Shown: piece by piece, positions 1 through 32,760 of the stretch
How positions within the stretch are numbered: the stretch's first letter is position 1
How the letters are laid out: each line of letters begins with the position of its first letter
Origin: Amphiscolops sp. MND2022
Lineage: Eukaryota
NCBI GenBank assembly: GCA_964187785.1
Contig: OZ076409.1
Span: forward strand, 72,914,001-72,978,000
Length of the DNA: 64,000 nucleotides
Direction of reading: 5' to 3'
Position numbers and translations under genes: made by a program
Notes under the pieces: model-generated
What the model was told of the DNA's origin: nothing
Database searches by the model: none
What the model saw: the letters and a program-made list of their open reading frames with translations, nothing else

Positions 1-270
1 CGCAAAAAGCACCGAACTACGGCCCTTACCTTCCCGAGCTACGCAGTATAAGGATTACATATTGGTTCCGACATTTTCATAGAGTTAAATCTTGGTAATC
101 TGTCTGGATATGCAGAAAAACCAGCACGTGCTTTTTTATACCAAGTTGCTTACAACGACAATTATTTTATATCAACGCCCCCATATTTATCAACGCCCCC
201 CGTCCGTGGGCATGCCGAGGCATGCCCTTCGACGACGTATACCAAGATATGTTCGAGCGCGTTAGCCTAG
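1..270 (+). repeat. U0, partial S-c unit (3' end only)
   Basis: Tail matches U9/U33/U37; 20-mer at 208-227, CTAG 267-270. Confidence 0.9.
208..227. promoter_or_regulatory. 20-mer GGGCATGCCGAGGCATGCCC: palindrome and candidate p53/p63/p73-family response element (representative of 40 copies)
   Basis: Decamers GGGCATGCCG + AGGCATGCCC, zero spacer, 19/20 match to (RRRCWWGYYY)x2; starts 55-75 nt upstream of every junction except those ending U2 and U34. Function inferred. Confidence 0.5.
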
Positions 271-748
271 GTGCCGGGATTTCTATTCGTTCAAGTAAGT
301 TGCGCGTGTGGGTAGGGCCCCTGGCGCGCTCTTGTGTTTGGGGGTTTCCTACTTCTAAATCACGTTCAGATTTCCGGGATCTCGTAAACTATCCATACGA
401 TTTGGCTGAAATTTGGCACACAGCCCCGTTGGAACATTCTAAGAACAAATCCCTACTGACGTTTTGCCCGCTAAACATTTTTTGTTGGTCAAAAATGCGA
501 TTTTCCGACAAAATTTTTGACTTTTTTTCATTTTACAGTCTATTTCTCGCCACAGGGTCTTGCTAGCTACCCTAAACCCTGCTAATTATAATTTGCAAAC
601 TGTCTCAGGAATGCGGTGTGAAAATTTCAGGTCAATCGGACTTAAACTCAGCGAGTTAGAGCAATTTTTTAGGTGCTTTTTTTGACATTTTTTGCATTTG
701 CCGATTTATCTCTGCCGTTTTTTGCCCAGATTTTTTTGAGACACTCTC

Positions 749-854
749 CTAAAGGCCTCCCCTGGCCGGTTTACCTCCCAGAGAAACCATTTGGCCCTAA
801 ATACGGAGTTTCAGCGTTCTAGCATTCGCGGGCGAAAAGTTGTGGGACTTAGAA
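749..854 (+). repeat. ~105-bp conserved core of all S-class units (representative)
   Basis: CTAAAGGCCTCCCCTGGCCG...AAACCATTTGGCCCTAAATACGGAGTTTCAGCGTTC...GGGCGAAAAGTTGTGGGACTTAGAA, nearly invariant across otherwise divergent S families. Confidence 0.85.
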
Positions 855-1227
855 TAAATTTTTGGAAACGCAAAATGTGTAAAGTCAACTTCAGGCCTCC
901 CAAAGTCAAAGAACTTCCACACAACTAGGATTGCAAGTGGATGCATGTGGAAAGTACTGGGATAGACGAGAAAAATGAGCTATAGAACAACTCTGTAGCT
1001 CAACCTGACGTTGACTAATGATGTTTTGAATGTGTGCTTGCTAAGGGGTCCCAAATTGAAAATTTTTAAAGAAAGTTAATATCGTCAAAAATTCATCGGA
1101 AAGCCTGCAATATACAGTAGAGCGTGTTCAATTGTAGCTGAATAATGCATCAACACCGTTCAAGGTCTTTTAAGTCAGTTTCAAAATTTTTGACACTGTA
1201 ATCTTCATCCGAGAGCACAAAACAGTT

Positions 1228-1270
1228 GAGTACATTCCATCTCCCTTTCGGGGGAGATGAGAATGTACTC
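1228..1270 (+). other. Hairpin A, bulged inverted repeat of S-class units (representative)
   Basis: GAGTACATTC-CATCTCCC / GGGAGATG-A-GAATGTACTC, one unpaired A; about 255-270 nt upstream of the unit end. Confidence 0.85.
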
Positions 1271-1534
1271 GCTAAAGAACATGTACTACAGCCAATTTTT
1301 GTTTTTATGCGAGGTCATTCTATGCTATTGCACACGAACACTTTAGTTTTGACAAACATATGTCTTTACATGCTGAATCTTACCTTACCTTTACTTTACG
1401 TTTTTGTACATACTACTACAACAACTCACCCCTAACGTCAACGTCCCATACTTTAAATCAACGCCCACCGTCCGTGGGCATGCCGAGGCATGCCCTTCGA
1501 CGACGTATGCCCTCTCAAACGCGGTAGCCGCTAG

Positions 1535-2808
1535 GTGCCGATCCCCTTTGGGATGCCTTAGTTTCGAGGGCGGTGTAGGGCCCCCTGCCCGAGTCTAGTA
1601 TAAACAACGTAAGGCGATTTTAACAGTGAGGTATCGATTTTCTAAACGAGCCATACGATTTGGCTGAAATTTTGCATACGGCTTCCTATAACAATCCTAA
1701 GAACTAATCCCTACTGGCGTTTTGCCCGGAAAAATCAAAAAGTGGGTCAAAATCTTAGTTTTTTGGTCAAAAAATGGCGTTTTTTTGGAAAAAAATTTTT
1801 TAAGAGCCAATATCTCGCTCCACAGGCCCCGGATCAAAAAGTGTACAATTGTTCGCGTGCTAGGCACTTCATGAACTGTCCGTAGACAAATTTTCGTCCA
1901 GATCGGATAAAAATTGACTGAGTAATAGAAAACTTTGAAAGTGATTTTGACGACATTTTTCGAAAACCTAGTCTATCTCTGCCGTTTTTTGCCCAGATTT
2001 TTTTCCAGGACCTCTCGTAAAGGCCTCCCCTGGCCGGTTTACCTCCCAGAAAAACCATTTGGCCCTTTTGCCGCAGTTTCAGCGTTCCAGGATTCCCCGG
2101 GTAAAAGATAAATGACTTAGAATTTTTTCAAAAATTTTTCAAAATTTTTTTTTTCAACTTCAGGCCTCCCAAAGTCAAGAAACTTCCATACAACTAGTAT
2201 TGCAAGTGAATGCATGTGGAAAGTGCTCGAATAGACGAGAAAAATGAGCTATTATAAACCTCTGTAGCTCAACCTGACGTTGACTTATGACAATTTTAGT
2301 GTGAGCTTGCTATATGGTAAAAAAATTCAAAAATTGAAAATCGAAGTTAAGTCTCATCCAAAACTCATCGGAATACGTTCAATCCATCCCAAAGCGGTTT
2401 ATTTCCAGCTATAGAGTGCAGCAACACCGTTCAAGGTCATTTGACCTATTTCAATAGGTTTTGACTCTGTCTTATCCATCCGATAGTTCGAAACAGTTGA
2501 GTACATTCCATCTCCCCTCCGTGGGAGATGGTAATGTACTCGCAAAAAGTCAAGGTCCTACCACCCTATTCTACCCGGAGTGGTGCTAGCAATGCAGTAG
2601 CGTGAGCCCCAGGTTGTTTGCAGTAGCCTTTACGTATGTTGTGACTATGTATTACAATTCTAACTCTGTTACTAAACAATAAAAATTGTTTCAATCTCAA
2701 ATTTTTTTTTCAACTTTAGTATGTCACCAATAAACATATATCCATCTTTCCTACTACAACCACCCTACCACCCGGCCCCTTGTCCACTGTTCAACCGTTC
2801 ACGTCTAG
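1535..2808 (+). repeat. U2, short unit, family S-b, lacks the 20-mer (1274 bp)
   Basis: Hairpin A 2499-2541; ends TTCACGTCTAG; near-identical to U34. Confidence 0.9.
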
Positions 2809-4083
2809 GTGCCGGTGTATTTTTACACAATGGGGGATGTTGCGCGTGTGGGGAGGGTCCCTGACGCGCTTCCGTGGTTTCGGGTCTTCTAACCTATGAT
2901 AGCGTGACACCTGACTTCGATCTCGTAAACTAGCCGTACGATTTGGCTGAAATTTGGCACACGTACCCCCCTCGACACGGTGAAGATGATTTCCTACTGA
3001 CGTTTTTCCCGCTAAACATTTTTTGTTGACCAAAATAACGGTTTTTGGGGTAAAATTTTGAATTTTTTTTAAATTTCATCTTATATCTCGCCACGGGTTT
3101 ACGCTAGCGCTTCCAAACCTTGCTGACGAAACCTTGCAAACTGTCTCAGGAATGCGGTGTGAAATTTTCAGCTCAATCGGACTCAAACTCGAGGAGATAT
3201 AGCGTTTTTCCGGAGCGGGGGGGTTTCATTTTTCTAACGGTCCAGCTTAACTTTGCCATTTTTTCGAAAATGTACTCGCCTAAAGGCCTCCCCTGGCCGG
3301 TTTGATTCCCAGCAAAACCATTTGGCCCTAAATACGGAGTTTCAGCGTTCCAGCATTCCCGGGCGAAAAGTTGTGGGACTTAGAAAAGTTCAAAAATTTT
3401 CAAAAAAATTTTTTTCCGTTATTTGGGCCCCCAAAGTGGGGGAAAAGACCCCCCAACCAGAAAAGCAAGTGAATGCATGTGGAAAGCCCTTGTTTAGACG
3501 AGAAAAATGCCGTTTAGAACGTCTTTTTATCTTAACTTGACATTGACTTTTGTCGTTTTGAAGGTGACCGTTAGATACGGAAAATTGATGTTTTGAGTAT
3601 TTATACCATCTGAAAGCCATTGAGATACAACATGTTTTGCTCAAAACGTGTTTCATTGCAGTTTCGCTGTCCATTATCACCCTTTGGTGTCTTTTCACGT
3701 AATTTTCGTTTCTATAATAACAATTTTTTTGTGTATTTATTCATTTTTTTCTCATCAAATAACTTGAAACAGTTGAGTACATTCCATCTCCCTTCCCGGG
3801 GGAGATGAGAATGTACTCGCTAAAGGTCAGGAACTACGGTCTATATCTTCCACAACACAAAAGGGATTGCAAATGGTTTCAGTTTGTTGCAGAAAACTTC
3901 TTTTTGCCCTCTGTGACTCGACAAAATGAACGTTTCTTACTTACTTTGAAACTCAGCATACCACAACTCATCTCTAACGTCAGCGCCCCCCTACTTGCAT
4001 CAACGCCCACCGTCCGTGGGCATGCCGAGGCATGCCCTTCGACGACGTATACCAAGATATACCTGGAGCGCGGTAGCCGCTAG
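2809..4083 (+). repeat. U3, short unit, family S-c, tail type c1 (1275 bp)
   Basis: Hairpin A 3775-3818, 20-mer 4018-4037. Confidence 0.9.
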
Positions 4084-5349
4084 GTGGCCGTGTCTTTTCG
4101 ACGTGCTTTTGCATCGAGGAGTGGGTAGGGCCCCGCGACGACCTAGAAGAATTGGATGCTCACCGAAACGTGCAGAATTCTACGAGATCTCATAGTTTGA
4201 GCCATACGATTTTGCTGAAATTTGGCATGTGGCCTGGAATTGGTGAGTAGGTAAAACGTGTAGGAGGTGATTTTTCCCAAATTCCACTGTGAGACGAGAT
4301 ATGGGCAAATAACGGTCCCAAAAATGGCAAAAATGCACTTTTTTCAACTTTGTCAGCCCATATCTCGTTCCCAGGTGCCCGGAGCGGGACGCGTTAAGCT
4401 GATTATAAACTCTAGGGTGTTGAGGCTGTACGGTGAACTTGGGCCCGTTCCGATCCGACTTGTAGTCTTGGAGAAATAACGGTATTTTTGGGGAACCTTT
4501 TCTAACGGTCCAGCTTATCTTTGCCATTTTTTCGAAAATGTACTCGCCTAAAGGCCTCCCCCTGGCCGAATTTACTCCCAGCAAAACCATTTGGCCCTAA
4601 ATACGGAGTTTCAGCGTTCCAGCATTCCCGGGCGAAAAGTTGTGGGACTTGGAAAATTTTCAAAAATTTTCAAAAAATTTTTTTTTCGTTTTCCGGGCCC
4701 CCAATGAAGGGGAAACGACCCCCCAACCAGTATTTTGAGTGAATTCATGTGGAAAGCCCTTGTTTTGACGAGAAAAATACCGTTTAGAACATCTTATCTT
4801 GACTCAACGTTGACTTATGACGTTTTGAATGTGATGTAAGGATGTAGGAGGCATGTGATAAGTTGATGTTTTGAGTCTTTATCTCATATGAAAGCGGTTG
4901 AGATGCAAGCTGTCCTGCTCAAAACGTCTTTCGTTGTAATTTTCCAGTGCACCAATACCCTTTGGTGTCATATAAACATACTTTTTGTCGATATATTAAC
5001 AATTTTAATGTATTTATTCCAATTTTTATTATCTTATAACTCAAAACAGTTGAGTACATTTCATCTCCCTTTCGGGGGAGATGAGAATGTACTCGCTAAA
5101 GACCTAGCGCCATGACCAAAAGTTTGAAACCCACGTTTTTTATCTTCTTACAGACTTGTTTTTGTATTTTTTCGGAATTTTTTAAAAATTAATATACTTG
5201 AAATACATTACTTGACTTTACTACTACAACCCACCTCCAACGACAACGCCCCCCTGCTTGCATCAACGCCCACCGTCCGTGGGCATGCCGAGGCATGCCC
5301 TTCGACGACGTATGCCAAATGCCCAGTGCCACGCAGTCATTATCGCTAG
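4084..5349 (+). repeat. U4, short unit, family S-d (1266 bp)
   Basis: Hairpin A 5052-5094, 20-mer 5281-5300; near-identical to U24 and U30. Confidence 0.9.
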
Positions 5350-7535
5350 GTGGAGGTTATTTTATAATAATTAAAGTGTTTTTTTCCGGAGTTTGTGGCT
5401 TTGGAAAAAACAAAAGGCGAGAAATTGGGCACTCCGGGCTGAACCGTATACACTCAATATTCGCCCAATATTTATACGATCTCGAAACCCAGCCGTACGA
5501 TTTGGCTGAAAATTTGCATGCGGCTAAAAAATCAGATTCTAAGAACTATTTCCTGCTGACATTTTTTTGAAATTTTTGTGTACGTTTCCCCCCCCCGCCC
5601 CCTAAAGGGGTCAATTTTCCCCAATTTTGCACTTATGAGTCAAATTCTCAAAACTGGTGGATCTGAGCGTATTCCCGGCGGGGACAACTTTTAACGAGCG
5701 CTCCTCAGTAGACCTTTTTGACTTTTTACTTTGGTGGTACGTTCACCCCCCGAGGAGGAAATGGCGTTTTTGTGACTTCCGGTCGAGGCTTTTTTCACCC
5801 AAAAAAAAAAATTAAGCCAATTTTGAGCAGGAAGGAGTGGATTTAAAGTGCCTGTACCCTGCTAAAAATTTGTTGGGCTTGTAGCGATATATCTCATACC
5901 AAGTCTGGTTTTCACCCCCAAACCCCCCTTGGGACCAAAATTCACCCAAACTTTTTTACCTCTGTTTGTAGTTTTTTTGCAAAATGTCGTCATTTCCATG
6001 GGTAAGGAGTTGAATTAGGGGCTCCTAATAGGGTACCAATGTTCAAGTACACTTGCAGTGCAACTGAGTGACCCTTTTGGGGCCTCTCCTGTGTTCGGCA
6101 AGGACCGGAAGTGGTGTAAACCCCCCTTTTTTGACGTTTGTTGACCTTGAGACTCGCGCTTAGATGACGTTTATGTCGCGCAAATCCTACAAACCAGTAT
6201 TAGGATGACATGCTAGCCAACTAGAGAGCACTAAGGGAAACTATACTATACCGGAAGTAACCCCCCGTGACCGGAAGTTGTCATTTTTGACCGGAAATGG
6301 TCCAAAACATAGCGTAAAAGCAGTTTTCATTGCTTTTAAAGTCAACTTATTACTTTTTTCAGTCTGCGCGAGCTTGTCTTCAGATTCGTTTTTGTTGTCC
6401 GTGCACACTACAACAAATTTACATCTGTAGAATTTTTGCTATAATATCGTCGGAGAGAGAAATAACGGGTTTCCGGAATTTTTTTCAAACATGTTTGTCT
6501 ATATCTATCATTTTTACCCAACGTTATTCAACAGTAGAACCACAGGGGTTAGTATCTGCCAAAATATATGCCTAACAAAACCACTCGTCCCATTGGTTGC
6601 AGTTTGAGCGTTCTAGCTTTGCCTGGTCACAAGTTGAGGGACTTCAAAAAGTTTCAAATTTTTTTGGAAATTTTTTTTAAACGTCACGTCTCCCAAAGTT
6701 AAGAATTTTCCACACAACTAGGATTGCAAGAGAATGCACATGGTAAGACCTATAAATGGAGAGAAAAATTCCGTTCAGAACGTCTCTTTATCGTTACGTG
6801 ACGTTAAAAGATGTTGCTTTGAATGTGAATTTGATAATGCGTCGAGAAGTAAAAGAGTGTGAATGGATCCTATGTCTCGACAAATACTCATCGCAATACA
6901 TACGATGAACCCTAATTACCCTCACTTTCAGTTGGCTAGTACATCAGCGTCTTCCAAGGACCGTTTACCTATTTGAAAATTGTCAAAATCATTATTAATA
7001 TCAGTTAGCAAGAAATGTTTGAGTACATTGTCATCTCTCCCCATCGGGTGAGATGAGAATGTTCTTGCTAAAAGTCAAGTACTACGGCCCATTTTTGTTT
7101 TATTGCGACGTTTTCTGTGCCTTAGCACAAGGATACTTTTATGTCATCTCACTTTTGTTATACAATCTGACTTGTTGTTATAAATTTCTCGTCATTACTT
7201 TACCTAAACTTACTACCATGCATCTTTAACGTCAAAGCCAAATTCATTTAGACGCCCACCATTCCGTAGGTATGCCGAGGTATGCCTTTCGAAGACGTAT
7301 GGCAAAACACAAACGGGCAAATGAAAAGGGCTGAAATTCAGAAACAGTCACAAACAATTTTGACTATTTGACCGATGGTAGGTTTTTATATGGAACTTAC
7401 ACATCACTGACATTTCAAAACATTCCAGCTGACGCCCACCCACAAACATCAACGCCCACGGTCCGTGGGCATGCCGAGGCATGCCCTTCGACGACGTATG
7501 GCAAATACCTTTTACGACGTCCCAACTTTCCCTAG
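5350..7535 (+). repeat. U5, composite unit H1 with two successive 3' ends (2186 bp)
   Basis: Degenerate hairpin A 7021-7066, decayed 20-mer 7268-7287, intact 20-mer 7467-7486; paralog of U18. Confidence 0.88.
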
Positions 7536-8806
7536 GTGGCCGCGTCTTTTAGATGGACTTTTAGCCCTGAGGCGCGGGTAGGGTCCTGCGCCGAGCTGGT
7601 GAAAATATACTACGTCCAAATCGCCCGTTCCGGAAACGATCTCAAAACTGGCCCGTACGATTTTCCTGAAAATTTGCATGTGGCCCCCAATTGGCGAGCA
7701 ATGAAAAAGTGTAGGAGGTCGTTTTTCCCAAATTCCACTGTGAGAGGAGATATATGAAAAAAACGGACCCCAAAATGACGAAATTTTCACTTTTTGACCA
7801 AAAATGTGACATTATCTCCTCAGACAAGGCTCGGAGCAAAATTTGTCAGAACCCAAACCTGCAGCAGACTGTTAGAGGACTACGCACAGTAAGTTTGAAG
7901 GAAATCGGATAATCACATGTTGAGAAATTGACGATTTTCCGACAAAATTTTTTGCATTTGCAGTCTATCTCTGCCGTTTTTTGCCCAAAATTTTTTCGAG
8001 ACCCTCTCCTAAAGACCTCCCCTGGCCGGTTTACCTCCCAAAAAAACCATTTGGCCCTAAATACGAAGTTTCAGCGTTTTAGCATTCCCCAGTGAAAAGT
8101 TATGGGACTTAGAACTTTTTCAAAAATTTTCAAAATTTTTCTAAAAAAGTTCAGGCCGCCCAAAGTGAAGAAACTTCCACACAACTAGTATTGCAAGTGA
8201 ATGCATGTGGAAAGCCCTGCACTTGACGAGAAAAATGCCGTTTAGAACGTCTTTTTATCTTGACTTGATGTTGACTTATGATCTTTTGAGTAGCGTATAA
8301 CACGTGATCACAGTAGTGAAAATCCTAATTTTCAATAATTTTCAAACAATAACGCATGAAAAGAACCTGGAAAAGGTTCCGATGGGTCAGTTGGGATGTC
8401 GGAAGCATGTGTACATTCCCGTAGTGTATAGCGGATGTATTTGGGACTTATTAGAAATTGTGATATATTTTATACAAGTCTTTGTTTCTCTTAGAATCTT
8501 ATTCAGTTGAGTACATTCCATCTCCCTCTCAGGGGAGATGTGAATGTACGTTTGCCAAATGCCTTGTAAAGCTCACAATTTTGATGGATTCAAATGACTA
8601 AACAAGTGTGATTTGCGTTTGCCGAACCACTGCGACAAAATATCCTAAATCTATAGCGAGATTGAATGGTTTTTGTCTTTAGTGTTTCTTCTTGTATAGC
8701 CGACTTCCACATCCAAATATCAACGCCCACCGTCCGTGGGCATGCCGAGGCATGCCCTTCGACGACGTATGCCAAATACCATATGCCACGCTGTCATTAT
8801 CGCTAG
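7536..8806 (+). repeat. U6, short unit, family S-e, single copy here (1271 bp)
   Basis: Head hairpin 7571-7592, hairpin A ~8509-8550, 20-mer 8738-8757. Confidence 0.88.
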
Positions 8807-10092
8807 GTGGCCGGAAATTTTTTTTTTCATCAAAATCTTTGCCATTGGGGGAGGGGCCCCGGATGGCCAGTAGTACGGCATAGCTCCCTACGGAATCCAG
8901 GCAGAAAAAACGTGATTTTGGAAACTAGCCGTCAGAATTTGCTCAAATTTTGCATACGGCTTCCTATAACAATCCTAAGAACTAATCCCTACTGGCATTT
9001 TGCCCAAAAAACGCAAAAAGTTGGTCAAAATCTTAGTTTTTTGGTCAAAAAATGGCAATTTTTCGAAAAAAAAATTTTTCAGAGACAATTACTCGTAACT
9101 GGTTCACCCAGCGCAAAAACGCCTAGCTGATTTATTGTTGGGCACTTCATGAGGAGTGCGTATACAAATTTTTGTCCAGATCGGAAAAAAAATGACTAAG
9201 TATTAGCCGGAATTCGGACGCATTTTTTCGCAAATTTTTGAAAACCTAGTCTATCTCTGCCGTTTTTTGCCCAGATTTTTTTCCAGGTCCTCTCCTAAAG
9301 GCCTCCCCTGGCCGGTTTACTTCCCAGAAAAACCATTTGGCCCTAAATACGGAGTTTCAGCGTTCTAGCATTCCCGGGCGAAAAGATGTGGGACTTAGAA
9401 AAAATTCAAAATTTTTCAAAAAAATTTTTTTCGTTTTCCGGCCCCCCAATGAAGGGGAACGACCCCCCAACGAGGATTATTGGTGAATTCACGTGGAAAG
9501 GCCTTGTTTTGTGGAGCAAATTGCCGTTTAGAGCAACTTTTTATCTTAACTTGACGTTGACCTCTGTCGTTTTGAATTTGATATTAGTATGCGTTGAGCA
9601 TGTGAAAAGTTGATGATTTCAGTTGTTCTCTCGTGTTCAAGCCATTGAGATACAAGCGGTAGTGATCAAAATGTGATTTATCGCAATTTGATGGTGCTTT
9701 TGGTGTATTTTGATTCTTTTAAATAAAAAGTTGTTCTTTTTATATTTGGTGTATTGATTCAAATGAACAAGAAACAGTTGAGTACATTTCATCTCCCCCC
9801 TTGTGGGGGAGATGAGGATGTACCCGCTAAATGACACGCACAATGGCCTAATTTTATTTTTATGCGACATTTTCTGGCTTTTGCGCAAGCCCACTAATAT
9901 TTAGACTGGTTTCCTTTTCTTTTACTCCAAAATTTTCCGTACTAACCACCTTACGCACCACCAGCTCAACGTAACATCTGTAACGTCAACGCCACACACT
10001 CTCACTAACGCCCACTGTCCGTGGGCATGCCGAGGCATGCCCTTCGACGACGTATGCCAAATAGCGCCACAGGGCGCAAACTTGTCCGCTAG
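8807..10092 (+). repeat. U7, short unit, family S-f (1286 bp)
   Basis: Hairpin A ~9780-9835, 20-mer 10023-10042; near-identical to U26. Confidence 0.9.
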
Positions 10093-10125
10093 GTGCGGGG
10101 GGGTAACCCCAACTTTTTTCTTGGA

Positions 10126-10149
10126 GGAATCGGGTAGGGTCCTGATTCC
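10126..10149 (+). other. Head hairpin H2 with conserved TAGGG(T/C) loop (representative)
   Basis: GGAATCGGG-TAGGGT-CCTGATTCC; stems covary between families. Confidence 0.8.
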
Positions 10150-11624
10150 GAGTTCAGTGCCGCCAGCTATCGTTAAAAACCCATACCTTTTAAACCCGAT
10201 CTCGGGAACTAACCACGCCCCTTCTTTAATTTTTTGGCCCCCACTCACTTTTTGAGAGTAGATCGCCCCCCACTGGGTTCCAAGTTGGGCAAAAATGGAG
10301 GTCATGGGTAACGGGGACCGTTAAGGGGTAACTCAGGGGGTAAAATTTATTTTTTGCGTCATATCTTTTCCCCCCGTGGATTTAGCGCTTCCGGTCAGCA
10401 GACAAAACCTCATGTACGTGATACGGGGCCTCCGTAGGTCCAAACAAAATTTTTCTATCATGCACCGTTACGGACTTGCCCCCCGGCCCAACCGTTATTT
10501 TACCGGAAATTGCACTTTTTGACCGGGAAGGAGTCGTCTGAGCATGGAGTCGTTTGGTAATGTTTTGTAGTGCATCTGGAGACGTGTTGGGGGACATGTA
10601 GTTTGCCGGCCCCAGTTTACCCCCCGGACGGGAAATGACCGTTATGTGAGTTTTAAAATTACCCCCCTTCAATTTTCCCCGTTATTTCCGGTGTGAAGGA
10701 GTGGGAGTAGCGCGTCGGGTGCCATATATCAAAAGTAGGTTTAGACAAGGACCAACCGGAAACTTGTGGTTTGGGACCCCCTGACCCAACCCGTTAGCCG
10801 TTATAAGGGTGATCGCCTCCTTTTTTTACTCTCAAAACCGGAAAACGGGCATTGAGGGGTAAATATCTCGTGAACGCGTGGAGCAATCGTGTCCATCACT
10901 ACTACAAGGTTTCATACCCATGATATGGTGCCTTCAGGGGGGCAAACAGATTACCGCTATCTATCACCGTTACCGACTTGGCCCCCCAGCCTAACCGCTA
11001 TGTGACCGGAAATTGCACTTTTTGAGCCCAAAGGGTCGATCCTAGCCGGGCAACGTTAGGTAACATATTGTAGTACTCATTGAGACGAGTTGGGGGATAT
11101 AGTTTCAGTCACCCCCCGTTACCCCTTGAGACCGGAAATGACCGTTATGTGAGTAGAATTGCAATTTTTATACCTTTTGAAGGGCATTTAGGTGTGGAAG
11201 GAATGGTAATAGGTGCTTGGACACTATATGATGTAATGGAGGTCGTGAAGAGAGCATTCGGAAATAACCGTTATGTTGACCCCAAAGTCCCCCTGGTACC
11301 GTTAACGACCGGAAATGGCCAAATTTTGTGTTCATAGGGTACAAATGTTTAGTATTTTATGGATAAAAGTACCTGGAAGATGTTTTAAAGGCCTCCAGAA
11401 GTGAACATAGTCATGAAACCTTGTGGGGGGTAACGGTATATAGCACCGTAAGTCCAAACCGTTGGTCACAGAATAGGTTTTTTGGTTTCAAAATGTCTTT
11501 AGGCGTAGTTATGTGGGTTGAATTGTCATAATATCAACTAATACGGACTTTTTTGGGAAATAAAATTTTTTCACATTAGTTTCAGGGACCTACAATGCTT
11601 CAGTCAACATAACCGTAACATTTT

Positions 11625-11668
11625 GATAGCCTTTCAAGTTGACCTGGTGTCAACTTGGAAGGGCTATC
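11625..11668 (+). other. Hairpin B, bulged inverted repeat of L-class units (representative)
   Basis: GATAGCCTTTCAAGTTGAC-CTGGT-GTCAACTTGGAAGGGCTATC; variants in U19 and U20 retain pairing. Confidence 0.85.
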
Positions 11669-12085
11669 CTTCTAAAATCGTTAATCAAGAGTGTTTTTGG
11701 ATAGGTATATGTTGCATTAGTACCAATTAGAGCTTCATCAACAGTTTGCCAACGGCAAAACAATGTCGTGATAATTCCGTTATAAGAATAACAGTTAACA
11801 AATTGTTTACAAAGTTGATTTTTCCCATTCAAAATGTGTCCAAATGCCACCAAATTGAATAAAATAATAAATGGTATTGACTAAAACTAACTAACATTGA
11901 AAAAGAAGCTCAACATTTTTAATAGGTCTCATTATGGAAGCTGAAACCTCACGTTTTAACTTAATTAACGTCAACGCCACATACTTTACATCAACGCCCA
12001 CCGTCTGTGGGCATGCCGAGGCATGCCCTTCGACGACGTATGCCAACTACTTTTTATATCTACACCCAATTGCGGTAGCAGCTAG

Positions 12086-13371
12086 GTGCCGGGATTTCTA
12101 TTCGATAAAGTATGTGGCGCGTGTGGGTAGGGCCCCTGGCGCGCTCTTGGGTATGGTGTTCACCAGCTAGGAAATAGGGGTCGATTTTTCGGGATCTCCT
12201 AAACTAGCCACACGATTTGGCTGAAATTTGGCACACGTACCCCCCTCGGCACGGTGAAGATGATTTCCTACTGACGTTTTTCCCGCAAAATTTTTTTTGT
12301 TGTCCAAAATAACGGTTTTTGGGGTAAAATTTTGAATTTTTTTTAAGTTTCATCTTATATCTCGCCACGGGTTTACGCTAGCGCTTCAAAACCTTGCTAA
12401 AGAAAGCTTGCAAACTGTCTCAGGAATGCGGTGTGAAATTTTCAGCTCAATCGGACTTAAACTCGGGGAGATATAGCGTTTTTCCGGAGCGGGGGGGTTT
12501 CATTTTTCTAACGGTCCAGCTTATCTTTGCCATTTTTTCGAAAATGCACTCGCCTAAAGGCCTCCCCTGGCCGGTTTTATTCCCAGCAAAACCATTTGGC
12601 CCTAAATACGGAGTTTCAGCGTTCCAGCATTCCCGGGCGAAAAGTTGTGGGACTTAGAAAAGTTCAAAAATTTTCAAAAAATTTTTTTTCCGTTTTCCGC
12701 CCTCCCCCCCTAGGGGAAAAGACCCCCCAACCAGTAATTTGAGTGAATTCATGTGGAAAGGCCATGTTTAGAGGAGAAAAATGCCGTTTAGAACGTCTTT
12801 TTATCTTGGCTCAACGTTGACTTATGACGTTTTGAAGGTGATGTTTGGAGGTGTAAAGCACGTGAATAGTAAACGTTATGAGTATTTATCTGATCTGAAA
12901 GCCATTGAGATGAATATGGTTTGCTCAAAACGTAATTCATGGCAGTTTGGCAATCAATCAACACCCTTTGTTGACATTTGACATCTTTTTTTGTTGATAT
13001 AAGAAAAAATTTCGTGTATTTATTCATTTTTTTCTCATCAAATAACTTGAAACAGTTGAGTACATTCCATCCCCCCTTCACGGGGGAGATGAGAATGTAC
13101 TCGCAAAAAGCCCCGAACTACGGCCCTTACCTTCTTGAGCTACGCAGTATAAAGATTGCATATTGGTTCCGACATTTTGATAGAGTTATATCTTGGTAAT
13201 CTGTCTGGGTATGCAGAAAAACCAGCACGTGCTTTTTTATACCAAGTTGCTCACAACGACATTTATTTTATATCAACGCCCCCATATTTATCAACGCCCC
13301 CCGTCCGTGGGCATGCCGAGGCATGCCCTTCGACGACGTATACCAAGATATGTTCGAGCGCGTTAGCCTAG
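12086..13371 (+). repeat. U9, short unit, family S-c, tail type c2 (1286 bp)
   Basis: 20-mer 13309-13328; an S unit between two L units. Confidence 0.9.
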
Positions 13372-16300
13372 GTGCGGGGGGGTAACCCCAACAAAGATAT
13401 TGGAGGATTCGGGTAGGGTCCTGAATCCGATCTTAGTACCGTCAGCTATCAGTAGAAAATTTCCCTCAAAAACCGGGATCTCGGGAACTAACCGTAGGAT
13501 TTGAAAGTTGGAGCGGCCCCCACCAGATTTTCCCGAATAGATCGCCCCCCACCGGGCTCCATACCCCGGAAAATTTTTTTTTGGCCACACGGGCGACAGT
13601 TAGGGGGTCATTTTAGGGGTAAAATTCATATTGGTCCATATAACTTTTTTCCTGTTGGTTTAAAAGTTTGGGAACCCTTCTAAAGGTTTTTCGACCATGT
13701 TGCAAGGGCTCCGGAGGTGCAAACCAAATTTTTCTATCTTGAAGCTATCTCCAAGTACCCCCCCGCTCAAACCGTTATTTTTCCGGAAACGCAGGTTTTT
13801 GACCCGGAAGGAGTCGTCTGAGCGCGGGGTCGTTAGGTGATGTTTTGGGGACGGCCTTGAGACGAAGTGGGGGACATGTAGTTTGCCAACCTCAGTTTAC
13901 CCCCCGGACGGGAAATGACCGTTATATGAGCGTGAAAAATGCCCCCCTCCACGTTTTACCGCTATTTCCGGTGTGAAGGTGTGGGAGTAGCGCGTCGGGT
14001 GCCATATATCAAAAGTAGGTTTAGACAAGGATCTATCAAAAACATGTGGTTTGGGACCGCCTGACCCAACCCGTTAGCGGGAAATGGGGCTTCCGCCTCC
14101 TTTTTTTTTGGTTAAAAACGGAAAATGGGCATTGAGGGGTAAATATCTCGTGAACGCGTGGAGCTACGGTGTCCTTCACTACTACAAGGTTTCATACCCA
14201 TGATATGGTGCCTTCAGGGGGGCAAACAGATTTCCGCTATCTATCACCGTTACGGACTTGGCCCCCCAGCCTAACCGCTATGTGACCGGAAATGTCACTT
14301 TTTGAGCCCAAAGGGTCGGTCCCAGCCAGGGAACGTTAGATAACTTTTTGTAGTACTCATTGAGACGAGTTGGGGGACATAGTTTCAGTCACCCCCCGTT
14401 ACCCCTTGTGACCGGAAATGACCGTTATGTGGGTAAAATTGGGATTTTTGTACTTTTTGAAGGGCAATTAGGTGCGGAAGGAGTGGTAATAGGTGCTTGG
14501 ACACTATATGATGGAATGGAGGACGTGAGGCGAACATTCAGACATAACCGTTATGTTGACCCTAAAGTCACCCTGGTACCGTAAACGACCGGAAATGGTC
14601 AAATTTTGTGTCTATTGGGTACAAATGTTTGGTATTTTGTAAATAAAAGTATCTATTAGGTGTTTCGACGGTCTGCAGTAGTGAACATAGTCATGAAACC
14701 TTATGGGGGGTAACGGTATATAGCACCGGAAGTCCAAAACGTTAGAGACGGGATAGGTTTTTCCGTTTTAAAATGTCTTTCGGCGTACTTTTGTCAACTA
14801 ATATGGAATATTTTTTAAAATTAAAGTTTTTCCATATAGTTTCAGAGACTCCCAAACCTCAAACAACATAACCGTTACCTTATGATAGCCTTTCAAGTTG
14901 GCCTGGTGTCAACTTGGAAGGGCTATCCTTCAAAAATCGTTGATCAAGTGTGTTTTTGGGTATGTTTGAATCATTTTAGAATCAATTAGAGCTTCAAGAA
15001 AAATTTGCCAACGACAAAAACTATGTCGTGATGATTCCGTTATTAGAGTAATAGTTAACAAAATATTGATTAAGTTGATTTTTTACATTTCAAAAGTGTC
15101 CTAAAAGCCAGAAAACCTCTTTACCAAACAAATGGTATTGATTGGATTGTATATAACAGGTAATAAAAGTTCAAATTGATTATTACGTTTTATTATGTAA
15201 GCTGAAACGTCATATTATAGTTTAATTAACGTCAACGCCACATACTTTACACCAACGCCCACCGTCTGTGGGCATGCCGAGGCATGCCCTTCGACGACGT
15301 ATACCAAACAACCTCCATATCTACACCCTAACCGCGGTAGCAGCTAGGTGCGGGGGGGTAACCCCAACAAAATTTTTGGAGGATTCGGGTAGGGTCCTGA
15401 ATCCGATCTTAGTACCGTCAGCTATCAGTAGAAAATTTCCCTCAAAAACCGGGATCTCGGGAACTAACCGTAGGATTTGAAAGTTGGAGCGGCCCCCACC
15501 AGATTTTCCCGAATAAATCGCCCCCCACCGGGCTCCATACCCCGGAAAATTTTTTTTTGGCCACACGGGCGACTGTTAGGGGGTCATTTTAGGGGTAAAT
15601 TTCATATTTGTCCATAAAACTTTTTTCCTGTTGGTTTAAAAGTTTGGGAACCCTGCTAAAGGTTTTTCGACCATGTTGCAAGGGCTCCGGAGGTGCAAAC
15701 CAAATTTTTCTATCTTGAAGCTATCTCCAAGTACCCCCCCGCTCAAACCGTTATTTTTCCGGAAACGCAGGTTTTTGACCCGGAAGGAGTCGTCTGAGCG
15801 CGGGGTCGTTAGGTGATGTTTTGGGGACGGCCTTGAGACAAAGTGGGGGACATGTAGTTTGCCGACCCCAGTTTACCCCCTGGACGGGAAATGACCGTTA
15901 TATGAGCGGAAAAAATGCCCCCCTCCACGTTTTACCGCTATTTCCGGTGTGAAGGAGTGGGAGTAGCGCGTCGGGTGTTATATAACAAAAGTAGGTTTAG
16001 ACAAGGATCTATCAAAAACATGTGGTTTGAGACCCCCTGACCCAACCCGTTAGCGGGAAATGGGGCTTCCGCCTCCTTTTTTTTCGGTTAAAAACGGAAA
16101 ATGGGCATTGAGGGGTAAATATCTCGTGAACGCGTGGAGCTACGGTGTCCTTCACTACTACAAGGTTTCATACCCATGATATGGTGCCTTCAGGGGGGCA
16201 AGCAGATTTCCGCTATCTATCACCGTTACGGACTTGGCCCCCCAGCCTAACCGCTATGTGACCGGAAATGTCACTTTTTGAGCCCAAAGGGTCGGTCCCA

Positions 16301-19300
16301 GCAAGGGAACGTTAGATAACTTTTTGTAGTACTCATTGAGACGAGTTGGGGGACATAGTTTCAGTCACCCCCCGTTACCCCTTGTGACCGGAAATGACCG
16401 TTATGTGGGTAAAATTGGGATTTTTGTACTTTTTGAAGGGCAATTAGGTGCGGAAGGAGTGGTAATAGGTGCTTGGACACTATATGATGGAATGGAGGAC
16501 GTGAGGCGAACATTCAGACATAACCGTTATGTTGACCCTAAAGTCCCCCTGGTACCGTAAACGACCGGAAATGGTCAAATTTTGTGTCTATTGGGTACAA
16601 ATGTTTGGTATTTTGTAAATAAAAGTATCTATTAGGTGTTTCGACGGTCTGCAGTAGTGAACATAGTCATGAAACCTTGTGGGGGGTAACGGTATATAGC
16701 ACCAGAAGTCCAAAACGTTAGAGACGGGATAGGTTTTTCCGTTTTAAAATGTCTTTCGGCGTACTTTTGTCAACTAATATGGAATATTTTTTAAAATTAA
16801 AGTTTTTCCATATAGTTTCAGAGACTCCCAAACCTCAAACAACATAACCGTTACCTTATGATAGCCTTTCAAGTTGGCCTGGTGTCAACTTGGAAGGGCT
16901 ATCCTTCAAAAATCGTTGATCAAGTGTGTTTTTGGGTATGTTTGAATCATTTTAGAATCAATTAGAGCTTCAAGAAATGTTTGCCAACGACAAAAACTAT
17001 GTCGTGATGATTCCGTTATTAGAGTAATAGTTAACAAAATATTGATTAAGTTGATTTTTTACATTTCAAAAGTGTCCTAAAAGCCAGAAAACCTCTTTAC
17101 CAAACTAATGATATTGATTGAATTGTATATAACAGGTAATAAAAGTTCAAATTGAATATTACGTTTCATTTTGTAAGCTGAAACGTCATATTATAGTTTA
17201 ATTAACGTCAACGCCACATACTTTACATCAACGCCCACCGTCTGTGGGCATGCCGAGGCATGCCCTTCGACGACGTATACCAAACACCCTCCATATCTAC
17301 ACCCTAACCGCGGTAGCAGCTAGGTGCGGGGGGGTAACCCCAACAAAGATATTGGAGGATTCGGGTAGGGTCCTGAATCCGATCTTAGTACCGTCAGCTA
17401 TCAGTAGAAAATTTCCCTCAAAAACCGGGATCTCGGGAACTAACCGTAGGATTTGAAAGTTGGAGCGGCCCCCACCAGATTTTCCCAAATAGATCGCCCC
17501 CCACCGGGCTCCATACCCCGGAAAATTTTTTTTTGGCCACACGGGCGACTGTTAGGGGGTCATTTTAGGGGTAAAATTCATATTGGTCCATATAACTTTT
17601 TTTCTGTTGGTTTAAAAGTTTGGGAACCCTACTAAAGGTTTTTCGACCATGTTGCAAGGGCTCCGGAGGTGCAAACCAAATTTTTCTATCTTGAAGCTAT
17701 CTCCAAGTACCCCCCCGCTCAAACCGTTATTTTTCCGGAAACGCAGGTTTTTGACCCGGAAGGAGTCGTCTGAGCGCGGGGTCGTTAGGTGATGTTTTGG
17801 GGACGGCCTTGAGACGAAGTGGGGGACATGTAGTTTGCCAACCTCAGTTTACCCCCCGGACGGGAAATGACCGTTATATGAGCGTGAAAAATGCCCCCCT
17901 CCACGTTTTACCGCTATTTCCGGTGTGAAGGAGTGGGAGTAGCGCGTCGGGTGCCATATATCAAAAGTAGGTTTAGACAAGGATCTATCAAAAACATGTG
18001 GTTTGGGACCCCCTGACCCAACCCGTTAGCGGGAAATGGGGCTTCCGCCTCCTTTTTTTACGGTTAAAAACGGAAAATGGGCATTGAGGGATAAATATCT
18101 CGTGAACGCGTGGAGCTACGGTGTCCTTCACTACTACAAGGTTTCATACCCATGATATGGTGCCTTCAGGGGGGCAAACAGATTTCCGCTATCTATCACC
18201 GTTACGGACTTGGCCCCCCAGCCTAACCGCTATGTGACCGGAAATGTCACTTTTTGAGCCCAAAGGGTCGGTCCCAGCCAGGGAACGTTAGATAACTTTT
18301 TGTAGTACTCATTGAGACGAGTTGGGGGACATAGTTTCAGTCACCCCCCGTTACCCCTTGTGACCGGAAATGACCGTTATGTGGGTAAAATTGGGATTTT
18401 TGTACTTTTTGAAGGGCAATTAGGTGCGGAAGGAGTGGTAATAGGTGCTTGGACACTATATGATGGAATGGAGGACGTGAGGCGAACATTCAGACATAAC
18501 TGTTATGTTGACCCTAAAGTCCCCCTGGTACCGTAAACGACCGGAAATGGTCAAATTTTGTGTCTATTGGGTACAAATGTTTGGTATTTTGTAAATAAAA
18601 GTATCTATTAGGTGTTTCGACGGTCTGCAGTAGTGAACATAGTCATGAAACCTTGTGGGGGGTAACGGTATATAGCACCGGAAGTCCAAAACGTTAGAGA
18701 CGGGATAGGTTTTTCCGTTTTAAAATGTCTTTCGGCGTACTTTTGTCAACTAATATGGAATATTTTTTAAAATTAAAGTTTTTCCATATAGTTTCAGAGA
18801 CTCCCAAACCTCAAACAACATAACCGTTACCTTATGATAGCCTTTCAAGTTGGCCTGGTGTCAACTTGGAAGGGCTATCCTTCAAAAATCGTTGATCAAG
18901 TGTGTTTTTGGGTATGTTTGAATCATTTTAGAATCAATTAGAGCTTCAAGAAATGTTTGCCAACGACAAAAACTATGTCGTGATGATTCCGTTATTAGAG
19001 TAATAGTTAACAAAATATTGATTAAGTTGATTTTTTACATTTCAAAAGTGTCCTAAAAGCCAGAAAACCTCTTTACCAAACAAATGGTATTGATTGGATT
19101 GTATATAACAGGTAATAAAAGTTCAAATTGATTATTACGTTTTATTATGTAAGCTGAAACGTCATATTATAGTTTAATTAACGTCAACGCCACATACTTT
19201 ACACCAACGCCCACCGTCTGTGGGCATGCCGAGGCATGCCCTTCGACGACGTATACCAAATACATTTCATATCTACACCCACCCGCGGTAGCAGCTAGGT

Positions 19301-22300
19301 GCGGGGGGGTAACCCCAACAAAGATATTGGAGGATTCGGGTAGGGTCCTGAATCCGATCTTAGTACCGTCAGCTATCAGTAGAAAATTTCCCTCAAAAAC
19401 CGGGATCTCGGGAACTAACCGTAGGATTTGAAAGTTGGAGCGGCCCCCACCAGATTTTCCCGAATAGATCGCCCCCCACCGGGCTCCATACCCCGGAAAA
19501 TTTTTTTTTGGCCACACGGGCGACAGTTAGGGGGTCATTTTAGGGGTAAAATTCATATTGGTCCATATAACTTTTTTTCTGTTGGTTTAAAAGTTTGGGA
19601 ACCCTTCTAAAGGTTTTTCGACCATGTTGCAAGGGCTCCGGAGGTGCAAACCAAATTTTTCTATCTTGAAGCTATCTCCAAGTACCCCCCCGCTCAAACC
19701 GTTGTTTTTCCGGAAACGCAGGTTTTTGACCCGGAAGGAGTCGTCTGAGCGCGGGGTCGTTAGGTGATGTTTTGGGGACGGCCTTGAGACGAAGTGGGGG
19801 ACATGTAGTTTGCCAACCTCAGTTTACCCCCCGGACGGGAAATGACCGTTATATCAGCGTGAAAAATGCCCCCCTCCACGTTTTACCGCTATTTCCGGTG
19901 TGAAGGAGTGGGAGTAGCTCGTCGGGTGCCATATATCAAAAGTAGGTTCAGACAAGGACCTATCGGAAACATGTGGTTTGGGACCCCCTGACCCAACCCG
20001 TTAGCGGGAAATGGGGCTTCCGCCTCCTTTTTTTTCGGTTAAAAACGGAAAATGGGCATTGAGGGGTAAATATCTCGTGAACGCGTGGAGCTACGGTGTC
20101 CTTCACTACTACAAGGTTTCATACCCATGATATGGTGCCTTCAGGGGGGCAAACAGATTTCCGCTATCTATCACCGTTACGGACTTGGCCCCCCAGCCTA
20201 ACCGCTATGTGACCGGAAATGTCATTTTTTGAGCCCAAAGGGTCGGTCCCAGCCAGGGAACGTTAGATAACTTTTTGTAGTACTCATTGAGACGAGTTGG
20301 GGGACATAGTTTCAGTCAACCCCCGTTACCCCTTGTGACCGGAAATGACCGTTATGTGGGTAAAATTGGGATTTTTGTACTTTTTGAAGGGCAATTAGGT
20401 GCGGAAGGAGTGGTAATAGTTGCTTGGACACTATATGATGGAAGGGAGGACGTGAGGCGAACATTCGGACATAACCGTTATGTTGACCCTAAAGTCCCCC
20501 TGGTACCGTAAACGACCGGAAATGGTCAAATTTTGTGTCTATTGGGTACAAATGTTTGGTATTTTGTAAATAAAAGTATCTATTAGGTGTTTCGACGGTC
20601 TGCAGTAGTGAACATAGTCATGAAACCTTGTCGGGGGGTAACGGTATATAGCACCGGAAGTCCAAACCGTTAGAGACGGGATAGGTTTTTTCGTTTTAAA
20701 ATGTCTTTCGGCGTACTTTTGTCAACTAATATGGAATATTTTTTAAAATTAAAGTTTTTCCATATAGTTTCAGAGACTCCCAAACCTCAAACAACATAAC
20801 CGTTACCTTATGATAGCCTTTCAAGTTGGCCTGGTGTCAACTTGGAAGGGCTATCCTTCAAAAATCGTTGATCAAGTGTGTTTTTGGGTATGTTTGAATC
20901 ATTTTAGAATCAATTAGAGCTTCAAGAAAAATTTGCCAACGACAAAAACTATGTCGTGATGATTCCGTTATTAGAGTAATAGTTAACAAAATGTTGATAA
21001 AGTTGATTTTGTACATTTCAAATGTGTCCTTTATGCCAGAAAACCTTTTTACCAAACTAATGATATTGATTGAATTGTATATAACAGGTAATAAAAGTTC
21101 AAATTGAATATTACGTTTCATTTTGTAAGCTGAAACGTGATATTATAGTTTAATTAACGTCAACGCCACATACTTTACATCAACGCCCACCGTCTGTGGG
21201 CATGCCGAGGCATGCCCTTCGACGACGTATACCAAACACCCTCCATATCTACACCCTAACCGCGGTAGCAGCTAGGTGCGGGGGGGGTAACCCCAACAAA
21301 GATATTGGAGGATTCGGGTAGGGTCCTGAATCCGATCTTAGTACCGCCAGCTATCAGTAGAAAATTTCCCTCAAAAACCGGGATCTCGGGAACTAACCGT
21401 AGGATTTGAAAGTTGGAGCGGCCCCCACCAGATTTTCCCGAATAGATCGCCCCCCACCGGGCTCCATACCCCGGAAAATTTTTTTTTGGCCACACGGGCG
21501 ACAGTTAGGGGGTCATTTTAGGGGTAAAATTCATATTGGTCCATATAACTTTTTTCCTGTTGGTTTAAAAGTTTGGGAACCCTGCTAAAGGTTTTTCGAC
21601 CATGTTGCAAGGGCTCCGGAGGTGCAAACCAAATTTTTCTATCTTGAAGCTATCTCCAAGTACCCCCCCGCTCAAACCGTTATTTTTCCGGAAACGCAGG
21701 TTTTTGACCCGGAAGGAGTCGTCTGAGCGCGGGGTCGTTAGGTGATGTTTTGGGGACGGCCTTGAGACAAAGTGGGGGACAAGTAGTTTGCCAACCTCAA
21801 TTTACCCCCCGGACGGGAAATGACCGTTATATGAGCGTGAAAAATGCCCCCCTCCACGTTTTACCGCTATTTCCGGTGTGAAGGTGTGGGAGTAGCGCGT
21901 CGGGTGCCATATATCAAAAGTAGGTTTAGACAAGGATCTATCAAAAACATGTGGTTTGGGACCCCCTGACCCAACCCGTTAGCGGGAAATGGGGCTTCCG
22001 CCTCCTTTTTTTTCGGTTAAAAACGGAAAATGGGCATTGAGGGGTAAATATCTCGTGAACGCGTGGAGCTACGGTGTCCTTCACTACTACAAGGTTTCAT
22101 ACCCATGATATGGTGCCTTCAGGGGGGCAAACAGATTTCCGCTATCTATCACCGTTACGGACTTGGCCCCCCAGCCTAACCGCTATGTGACCGGAAATGT
22201 CACTTTTTGAGCCCAAAGGGTCGGTCCCAGCCAGGGAACGTTAGATAACTTTTTGTAGTACTCATTGAGACGAGTTGGGGGACATAGTTTCAGTCACCCC

Positions 22301-31370: not shown

Positions 31371-32760
31371 GTGGTTGGGGCGGTCCCCAGAACGCACAAG
31401 GAGGCGCGGGGAGGGTCCTGCGCCGACGTAGAATAATTTCATATAATACTAGTATCCTACATGGGTGTTTTAGAGGCGATTTTGGAATCTAACCGTAGGA
31501 TTTGGATAATTTTTTGCATGCGGCCATAACTCGAAATTCTAAGAACTTTTTCCTTCTGTCATTTTCCCCGCAAATTGTTTTTTGTTGACTTATGGCCGAA
31601 AAACCGGAAATAACGTCCTTTTTAGACGTTATATCCGAAGTGTCGTCATAACTTTTTTCCAGGGCATGCTAGCGTTCTCGTTCACTTTTACACTTAGTTG
31701 CAGCATCTCAAAATACAACTGGTGGAAAATTTTGGTTGCATTCGGATCACCCCCCACCGAGATAGAAGGGTTCCCCCCTCCAGTTTTACCCCCCAAATTT
31801 GCAAAATAGCCAATTTTGAGCATGAAGCCGAGGATTTAGCGTACCCGCACCCCCCTGATGTTTTGTTGTACGTATTGGGGTCAATCTGATGACATGTGTG
31901 GTTTTCACCCCCAACCCCCCCTTGGACCGGAAATGACACTTTTTTGTGTTTTTTGGCAGAATTTAGCCTTTTTCATTATTAGAAAGTCGTTTTAGGGACT
32001 CCTAGCAGGATATCGAAATTGAAATACAACCTGATCACAACCCAGTGACAACATGTTGGCCACTTGGAGGTATCATCATGACCGGAAGTGGGGTCAACCC
32101 CCCTTTTTGTGACCGCTTTTTGACCTTGTGCACCAAAAATGCCAACATCTTGAGGCCTAATGAGGCATTCAAATCTGTACAAAGATAAAATGTTAGACAA
32201 CCGAAGTCCCGGAAGATCTTTAGCATATACCGGAAATTACCCCCCATGACCGGAAGTTACCCAATGTGACCGGAAATGGTCCAAAAATTAATGTAAAGTT
32301 GAATTTTTCACTATTTCAAGACCACTTAATTGAAACTTTTCAATCTCAAAACTAGCGTACTGGCTTGTTTTGCTGAATTTATGGAAATTGATGAGCTCTA
32401 TTGCCCCCGATAGCCTTCGAAGTTGACCTTGCGTCAACTTTGGAGGCTATCGATAAAGAAAAATGAACAACAAAGTACATTGTTGCTCTCGTTTTTTTCC
32501 CGTTGTTTTTCCTCAAACATTCTTGAGACATATACATGGCCGTTAGTTGAAATCAATATTTAGCCCATGTTATAGCTGGAGCAGCGAAACGTTACACAGA
32601 CTAGTGTGGTTTTGAAATCACACTATTTAAATTAACAACTGACCGTCTTAGTCAACTCCACACATTCATACCAACGCCCACCGTCTGTGGGCATGCCGAG
32701 GCATGCCCTTCGACGACGTATGACGAATCCACTCCAACGACACCCGCAGTCCTCAGCTAG
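31371..32760 (+). repeat. U19, divergent hairpin-B unit L-d (1390 bp)
   Basis: Hairpin B variant 32409-32451, 20-mer 32689-32708; body partly homologous to the 5' half of U5/U18. Confidence 0.88.

Follow-up and report, generated by a model that had tools for sequence, protein, structure and literature searches.

Helitron-like elements and the array at this locus

Among the described systems nearest to the sequences studied here are the canonical rolling-circle transposons of the HLE1 group such as Helraiser. As described in the portions of the literature available to us, these elements encode a RepHel protein combining an HUH Rep with two tyrosines and a Pif1 helicase, end in CTRR/CTAG, possess a non-essential 3′ hairpin, cause no target-site duplication, carry a gene for a single-stranded-DNA-binding OB-fold protein downstream of RepHel, and are known to form head-to-tail junctions (PMC4778049, PMC5876387, PMC11417382). 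These traits, the CTRR end included, recur in the elements reported here, whereas the 5′ ends are GTG rather than TC, the insertion edges fit CTNG^DT rather than A^T, the hairpin lies 39–58 nt from the 3′ end or is absent instead of standing ~11 nt before it, and the RepHel, which is ~2,370 aa long and has a different motif II, forms a separate long branch in both Rep and helicase trees. The OTU, USP/UCH-like and GIY-YIG domains of the elements resemble those carried by HLE2, and with proto-Helentrons they share a 5′ stem-loop and a 3′ CTAG, as far as the available sections of the source describe them (PMC11417382); they differ from HLE2, Helentron and HLE2-reverse elements in that DUF6570 is absent, insertion is not at T^T, and the proteins stand apart in unrooted trees.

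Three other systems bear comparison, each known to us from excerpts of the respective reports. The "third clade" Helitrons of Paramecium also fall outside HLE1 and HLE2, are target-specific, have an absolute orientation bias and build a chromosomal compartment, but their target is telomeric repeats in a ciliate rather than their own junction in an animal, a comparison made by description (PMC13085455). The IS91/ISCR and IS200/IS605 families likewise insert in one orientation, beside a short target of about four bases belonging to the cleavage site and with hairpin recognition; however, they are bacterial, have no fused helicase and do not build megabase arrays of themselves (PMC10288648). Long tandem tracts of Helitrons, some of them subtelomeric, occur in plants, Xenopus and Hydractinia, yet these are described as concatemers of one family, in contrast to the dozens of families that alternate at one exact junction here (PMC12001565, 10.1101/2024.11.21.624632).

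The window, by which we mean the whole stretch of 64,000 nucleotides that was analysed, is part of a one-strand array about 6 Mb long and is no simple satellite. Helitron tandem arrays are said to have been treated by Xiong in 2016. The features to which we refer are the following.

1..64000, + strand: the whole window, which lies inside a one-strand array on contig C1; the array starts at ~70.455 Mb, and its RepHel units reach 76.46 Mb
202..236, + strand: complete subterminal block GTCYGT-20-mer-TTCGACGAC, with a stem that the flanks can extend
208..227, + strand: 20-bp palindrome with an 8–9-bp stem and a CGAG/GA loop, a near-perfect p53-type double site; first of 40 copies
267..273, + strand: junction CTAG|GTG, the 3′ end of one element and the 5′ start of the next; putative site of nicking, termination and insertion; 42 in the window
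271..1534, + strand: first complete non-autonomous unit, 1,264 bp
302..329, + strand: 5′-terminal stem-loop with a conserved GGGKAGGG loop (310–320) and a covarying stem; the loop motif follows 40 of the 42 window junctions
393..414, + strand: second conserved 5′ motif CCATACGATTT..CTGAAATTT, ~120 nt past the junction
1228..1270, + strand: long internal hairpin GAGTACATTC...GAATGTACTC with a variable loop, 27 copies in the window
1535..2808, + strand: unit without the 20-mer, ending CACGTCTAG; 88% identity over ~740 bp with the 5′ end of a RepHel-encoding autonomous unit
7268..7287, + strand: internal degenerate copy, C4T+C14T, in which both p53 core Cs are T and both stem pairs are G·T
13372..27204, + strand: seven near-identical 1,976-bp units in a row, neighbour alignment score 0.97–0.99
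29102..29121, + strand: variant A1/T19/T20, which keeps both the R/Y pattern and the pairing
53268..54541, + strand: second unit without the 20-mer, same family as 1535..2808

The array units are 1.3–2.8 kb long, start with GTG and end with CTAG, and every unit boundary in the window reads CT[AG]G|GTG (n = 42). A contiguous 224 kb contains 156 junctions that delimit 155 units of 1.3–2.8 kb; all 156 plus-strand occurrences of CTDGGTG in this region are junctions, compared with 19 occurrences of CTDGGTG on the minus strand, and the 3′ ends at the junctions comprise 154 CTAG and 2 CTGG, with a few CTTG ends at other loci. Junctions lie on the + strand in all 13 array samples taken from ~70.455 to 75.41 Mb of C1, and none was found in two samples before ~70.455 Mb or in five from 76.1 Mb on. 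C1 is a 104-Mb contig with the multi-megabase array inside it; other arrays lie near contig ends, and arrays made largely of families without the block also exist. The GGGKAGGG motif, found ~40 nt into most unit starts (it was partly built into the junction filter), occupies the loop of a hairpin; the two stem arms vary from family to family yet still pair.

Unit starts in the 224 kb fall into 66 families. A shuffle test on 115 neighbouring pairs of 1.3-kb units shows that the start type of a unit goes with its own end type (none of 2,000 shuffles reached the observed value), whereas no such association exists across the junction (285 of 2,000 did); local clustering of unit types appears once the 2-kb units are counted in. 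Tandem copying also occurs, as the seven-unit run at 13372–27204 shows by its local amplification. The window gave no match in an Rfam scan and holds 11 frames of at least 120 aa, the longest of 176 aa; TRF found no array in it, since the units are longer than its 500-bp period. Internal hairpins of the 1228–1270 type are present in families with and without the 20-mer and were not found in the autonomous ends read. A unit type of 4.77 kb with internal repeats of ~340 bp (L014:3128–7897) is also a member of these arrays.

Autonomous partners and classification

Long units within the arrays encode RepHel proteins with the Pfam domains Helitron_like_N (PF14214) and PIF1 (PF05970), several with a GIY-YIG and some with an OTU domain. 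In the alignment the HUH Rep shows H-x-H and Y-x-x-x-Y, the latter with two tyrosines, and is fused to a Pif1 helicase. These RepHel units lie on the same strand and have the same ends as the arrays, and we regard the units as very likely rolling-circle elements of the Helitron-like kind, an identity missed by the sequence-only reading, which had seen the repeat units. Of 466 candidates scored with a Rep query, 116 yielded a total of 121 matches, many of them in frames longer than 2,000 aa, and three copies on C1, C6 and C8 have Rep domains that are 99–100% identical with left and right neighbours that are all different. Non-autonomous units share their ends with autonomous ones: the 5′ 740 bp are 88% identical, and the last ~80 bp are 85–91% identical in four of five carriers of the 20-mer, the fifth giving a shorter match.

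Both ends were read for 20 autonomous units, of which 12 lack the 20-mer, 5 have it and 3 were not assigned. Those without it are 11 close relatives of the Rep query, which end ...CACGTCTAG, and one distant unit, which ends ...CACCGCTAG; the carriers are five distant units (35–42% identity) with the 20-mer in A1/T20 form ~65 nt before CTAG. Both window units that have no 20-mer show 88% identity to the type ending ...CACGTCTAG at its 5′ end. Since other families end precisely without the 20-mer, it is not essential.

An ORF downstream of RepHel that is common to the autonomous units models as tandem OB folds like those of RPA or LEF-3 (pLDDT 87). The N-terminal part of RepHel contains many invariant Cys and His residues, and its model (pLDDT 70) gave only USP-type matches in a PDB search. 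Neither of these two models points to an element-encoded protein of p53 fold. The autonomous units scanned have no integrase family among their ORFs and no tyrosine recombinase, which speaks against cassettes of Crypton or integron type. The gene set recurs in a relative from another assembly (L206), in whose contig element ends were not recognised. An ORF of ~220 aa is frequent in the autonomous units (L092:2515–3174; L026:4363–5028), one example having weak GDSL/SGNH-type Pfam matches below the cut-off. Near ORF starts upstream of OTU-like domains we also observed ESNPGP, IEWNPGP and IERNPGP (L097:2861–4027; L033:9322–9999; L206:1387–1700), which we take to resemble 2A ribosome-skipping peptides. 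Further intact RepHel clusters lie near contig ends at C2:102.0–103.9 Mb, C3:2.5–3.6 Mb and C9:3.4 Mb.

The Rep tree has 43 rows, and the 31 that are array-type proteins (10 of them database homologues) make up one clade with support 100/99, apart from 3 HLE1-type and 9 other rows; the tree is unrooted with long branches, its HLE1 rows all belong to one family, and one control was dropped as it had no anchor motif. An unrooted helicase tree of 26 rows agrees, with the array-type proteins separate at support 100. DUF6570, proposed as an HLE2 marker in the available part of the source, which also reports OTU, UCH and GIY-YIG as HLE2 accessory domains (PMC11417382), was found in 6 controls from the same genome and in none of the array-type RepHels scanned. 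The array RepHels thus appear to group apart from the HLE1 and HLE2 proteins of this genome, and since the trees are unrooted with long branches, the lineage may nonetheless have a derived origin within HLE2. A Replitron, defined in the accessible text by a Y1 Rep without helicase and by terminal direct repeats (PMC10288648), does not fit a RepHel with fused Pif1 and two tyrosines. HLE1 controls in this genome end in a hairpin and CTAG|T. The genome also contains several DUF6570-positive HLE2 elements, together with canonical HLE1-type elements (L186–L188) whose RepHel is preceded by a GATC-rich minisatellite. Our best reading is that the arrays likely belong to an unusually divergent Helitron-like lineage with its own ends, which may be represented among the unclassified elements of HELIANO.

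The subterminal block as a probable hairpin and a possible p53-family site

The sequence-only reading drew attention to a 20-mer that it described as a near-perfect p53-type element in about 40 copies and as the most conserved element of the stretch. Both descriptions hold: an exact-match search finds GGGCATGCCGAGGCATGCCC 39 times on the + strand of the window, first at 208–227, to which the variant at 29102–29121 is added, and none in 100 shuffles of the window. Its 10-mers are present in 38–39 of the 41 complete units, which makes it the block most widely common to units; motifs outside the 20-mer end block reach at most 27 of 41, poly-A/T runs aside. The supposed invariance needs qualification, as two of the 41 complete units (1535–2808 and 53268–54541) lack the 20-mer and a further degenerate copy lies at 7268–7287. 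In its own genome of 1.07 Gb the exact 20-mer occurs 4,293 times, compared with none for the reversed control, and nearly all copies among the first 100 matches listed are clustered.

The full conserved block extends over ~35 bp, GTCYGT-[20-mer]-TTCGACGAC (n = 40 in the window). Over 232 de-duplicated copies on C1, positions 2, 3, 5–13 and 16–18 of the 20-mer are invariant, as are most bases of the two flanks, a tally that is partly circular because these flanks served as anchors. In the 153 of 155 units of the contiguous 224 kb that carry it, the 20-mer lies 39–58 nt from the 3′ end. A block without special function, made uniform solely by the recent spread of a single 3′ end through the arrays via recombination or conversion, is very improbable. 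The arrays are indeed young, with near-identical RepHels on several contigs, and some units have mosaic combinations of starts and ends, but the tail between block and CTAG falls into 68 sequence types of 39–58 nt and the upstream bodies cannot be aligned between 1.3- and 2-kb families, and the block is fixed nonetheless.

According to the available part of the source, p53 response elements follow a consensus of two RRRCWWGYYY half-sites, with CATG giving high affinity and R1 and Y10 not contacted (PMC7897521). The 20-mer agrees with the consensus RRRCWWGYYY ×2 at 19 of 20 positions, with two CATG cores and zero spacer; the exception, G instead of Y at position 10, falls at a base described there as non-contacted (PMC7897521), so that binding of p53 in vitro is likely. 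The chance that such a palindrome fits the p53 consensus is about 1 in 2,800, before correction for the many motifs that could be matched. The host does possess a p53-family gene, which matches the p53/p63/p73 DNA-binding domains (best E 4.5e-50). It keeps the zinc and DNA-contact motifs RCPNH, CYGSCVGGLNRRP and VRICACPSRDR, which we equate with the human p53 residues. Transposon-carried p53 response elements have reportedly been found elsewhere. It is plausible, judging from the sequence, that the duplex 20-mer is a target of the host p53-family protein.

Whether this would account for its conservation is another matter. Under such an explanation, a host p53-family tetramer on duplex DNA keeps the motif, opening the array, timing mobilisation to germline or DNA-damage states, or being soaked up by the array, while the hairpin is incidental. 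The near-optimal site and the host gene speak for it, as do the occurrence of the 20-mer with RepHels of different subclades, as expected for a slowly evolving host factor, and its dominance in the sampled array (153 of 155 units). We nevertheless rank it second and consider it rather unlikely, in view of the variation of the motif. Genome-wide, positions 1 and 20 are G1/C20 in 4,293 copies, A1/T20 in 676, A1/C20 in 1 and G1/T20 in 10, a coupling that p53 does not explain, nor does it explain fixed A11 or the fixed flanks; and because p53 cannot fix non-contacted bases, the fixed G10 is not explained either. G10 is changed to A in 13 copies, to T in 2 and to C in none, so that the form with perfect consensus (G10 to Y) exists in just 2 copies. 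C14T, which loses a p53 core C and keeps a G·T pair, has 9 copies and is carried by a multi-copy autonomous family: 8 of the 9, distributed over four contigs, lie at ~6.95 kb on the downstream side of a stop-free Rep match. C4T+C14T is found in 24 copies, at least 2 of them internal duplicates. Pairing on the plus strand is preserved by all of the amplified changes, two of which abolish p53 cores; this is not the pattern of p53 tolerance, namely free R/Y swaps with fixed cores. These changes represent few independent events, the 676 A/T copies perhaps one. Sporadic mutants have no clear strand bias (C14T 3 versus G7A 4; C4T 6, at least one an internal duplicate, versus G17A 0). In addition, 12 of the 20 autonomous units lack the 20-mer, and there are just 3 other p53-like sites in ~980 kb of array loci. 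Compared with p53 response elements, the 20-mer stands out by its ~5,000 near-identical genomic copies, which have a set position within element ends and vary in line with pairing rather than with p53 tolerance.

The earlier suggestion that the array could recruit a p53-family protein accordingly retains a near-optimal site and a host gene with the contact residues, and is weakened by this variation and by the absence of the motif from most autonomous units examined. The 29102 variant had been taken to change only R to R and Y to Y; it does, but it keeps the stem too (an A1–T20 pair and a G2·T19 wobble), and so gives no preference for p53 over a hairpin. The contrast between an unvarying 20-mer stem and a covarying 5′ stem-loop, once taken to favour base-specific recognition, is real and counts for that reading, but the amplified base changes keep the hairpin pairing.

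The alternative that the sequence-only reading had left in second place is the one that we now prefer: the 20-mer, which forms the centre of a conserved 3′-subterminal module in one class of Helitron-like elements, probably acts as a hairpin on the displaced single strand, and as the cause of conservation this is the best-supported explanation. Besides the coupling of positions 1 and 20 and fixed G10, it accommodates flanks as conserved as the 20-mer. When folded, the block gives a CGAG loop and z = −3.5. This loop fits d(cCNNGg), reportedly, from a cited title, a class of stable hairpins. Ends that lack the 20-mer are not consistently structured and show no 3′ hairpin, their 42 end types, among which are some genomic left flanks, averaging z +0.15; a second terminator hairpin in the tail is not general, with z below −1.5 in only 14 of the 68 tail types. 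An old copy at L135:1438 has its loop inverted, TC for GA, as expected for template switching in a palindrome. The 3′ hairpin of Helraiser, in the accessible account, is a non-essential terminator in which the loop matters and the stem can be swapped (PMC4778049); the fixed loop of the 20-mer is in line with that model. On the other hand, a fixed and internally palindromic stem and the existence of hairpin-less families are not the Helraiser model, the distance of 39–58 nt from the end compares with 11 nt in Helraiser, the stem is fixed although the RepHels are just ~35–40% alike, and the palindromes within the arms, at a 10-bp period, are not needed for a hairpin.

These arm palindromes suit a different idea, that the 35-bp block is a base-specific duplex site of some other dimer-of-dimers protein of host or element, for example one that organises centromeres or chromatin, with the arrays kept as chromosomal structure. 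A double palindrome of 10-bp period with fixed flanks, a multi-megabase one-strand array inside a 104-Mb contig with others near contig ends, the many invariant Cys and His in the N-terminal part of RepHel, and Helitrons in Meloidogyne centromeres, as reported in the available text (PMC13404089), can be read in its favour. It is improbable, however: no candidate protein was found, the accessory ORF being an OB fold of single-strand type and the RepHel N-terminal model a USP fold, pair-preserving variation is not what it predicts, and arrays built largely of block-less families exist. With the 3′ hairpin as the preferred reading, the duplex 20-mer would probably be bound by the host p53-family protein too, as a by-product or second role. 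A true dual use, in which an undescribed clade homing to its own junction has a 3′ module that serves as RepHel hairpin when single-stranded and as near-optimal p53 site when double-stranded, is conceivable but doubtful; if it were true, rolling-circle transposition would be tied through ~5,000 clustered sites to the p53 response of the germline or to DNA damage, or these sites would titrate p53. Should host p53 occupy the arrays, thousands of near-optimal sites would be concentrated at one locus, and the use or sequestering of p53 by a DNA transposon would be directly testable.

Probable insertion at the elements' own junction

Left edges found without assuming a motif are CTAG ×3, CTTG ×3, CTCG ×1 and GTCC ×1, i.e. 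CTNG in 7 of 8, and the motif filter adds three more, CTAG, CTTG and CTAG. For one common right end there are 43 sites at which the next base is other than G; the 30 of these that were read, a few of which may be chance matches, all have A or T next, and 27 have T as the second base. A recognisable 5′ start was absent at 12 of 20 right-edge sites extended upstream. The outer edges fit CTNG^DT, and there is no target-site duplication, as the solo copies L142, L151 and L152 have unlike left and right 4-mers (CTTG or CTCG left, CTAG right). The random order of neighbours together with these outer edges suggests that insertion is quite likely targeted to the elements' own junction; one left edge of GTCC and one solo copy (L010) with CTTGGT on both sides, which is ambiguous for duplication, stand against this.

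The following sequence of events would be consistent with these observations. The CTAG|GTG junction and the 5′ stem-loop downstream of it would rebuild a complete origin, which would be origin and preferred target at once. RepHel would nick at a junction, peel off one unit and close at the next CTAG, the element's own machinery reading the 20-mer hairpin to finish and re-join the 3′ end, and the excised unit would be inserted at a site resembling the junction. Existing junctions being the best targets, mixed arrays would grow. The 20-mer block may improve recognition of the 3′ end and may have spread between lineages by swapping of ends within arrays. For Helraiser, circles with a precise end-to-end junction and cleavage of the plus strand are described in the available part of the report (PMC5876387).

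The literature searched, outside Repbase and subscription papers, contains neither an account of GTG...CTAG elements with their own junction as target nor one of a p53 site placed at the end of a Helitron. The lineage is of interest for its own ends, its six-base target that copies its own junction, its dozens of co-existing families and its many intact autonomous copies. Even without p53, it would offer a naturally occurring and perhaps active rolling-circle system with site specificity, and a way in which transposons may build satellite-scale chromosome domains without homogenisation of units.

Two further observations were made in this genome. We saw no sequence link between the Helitron arrays and a tandem array of 1.25- and 1.9-kb period at C2:2,333,000–2,360,500 (L017–L020), which is made up of a diverged p53-domain gene repeated in broken form, every copy adjoining protein-kinase-like fragments; related diverged p53-like frames are present on C26 and C13. 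At L140 (C2 near 16.308 Mb), a solo copy of 1,977 bp lies within a sequence that by eye resembles a tRNA.
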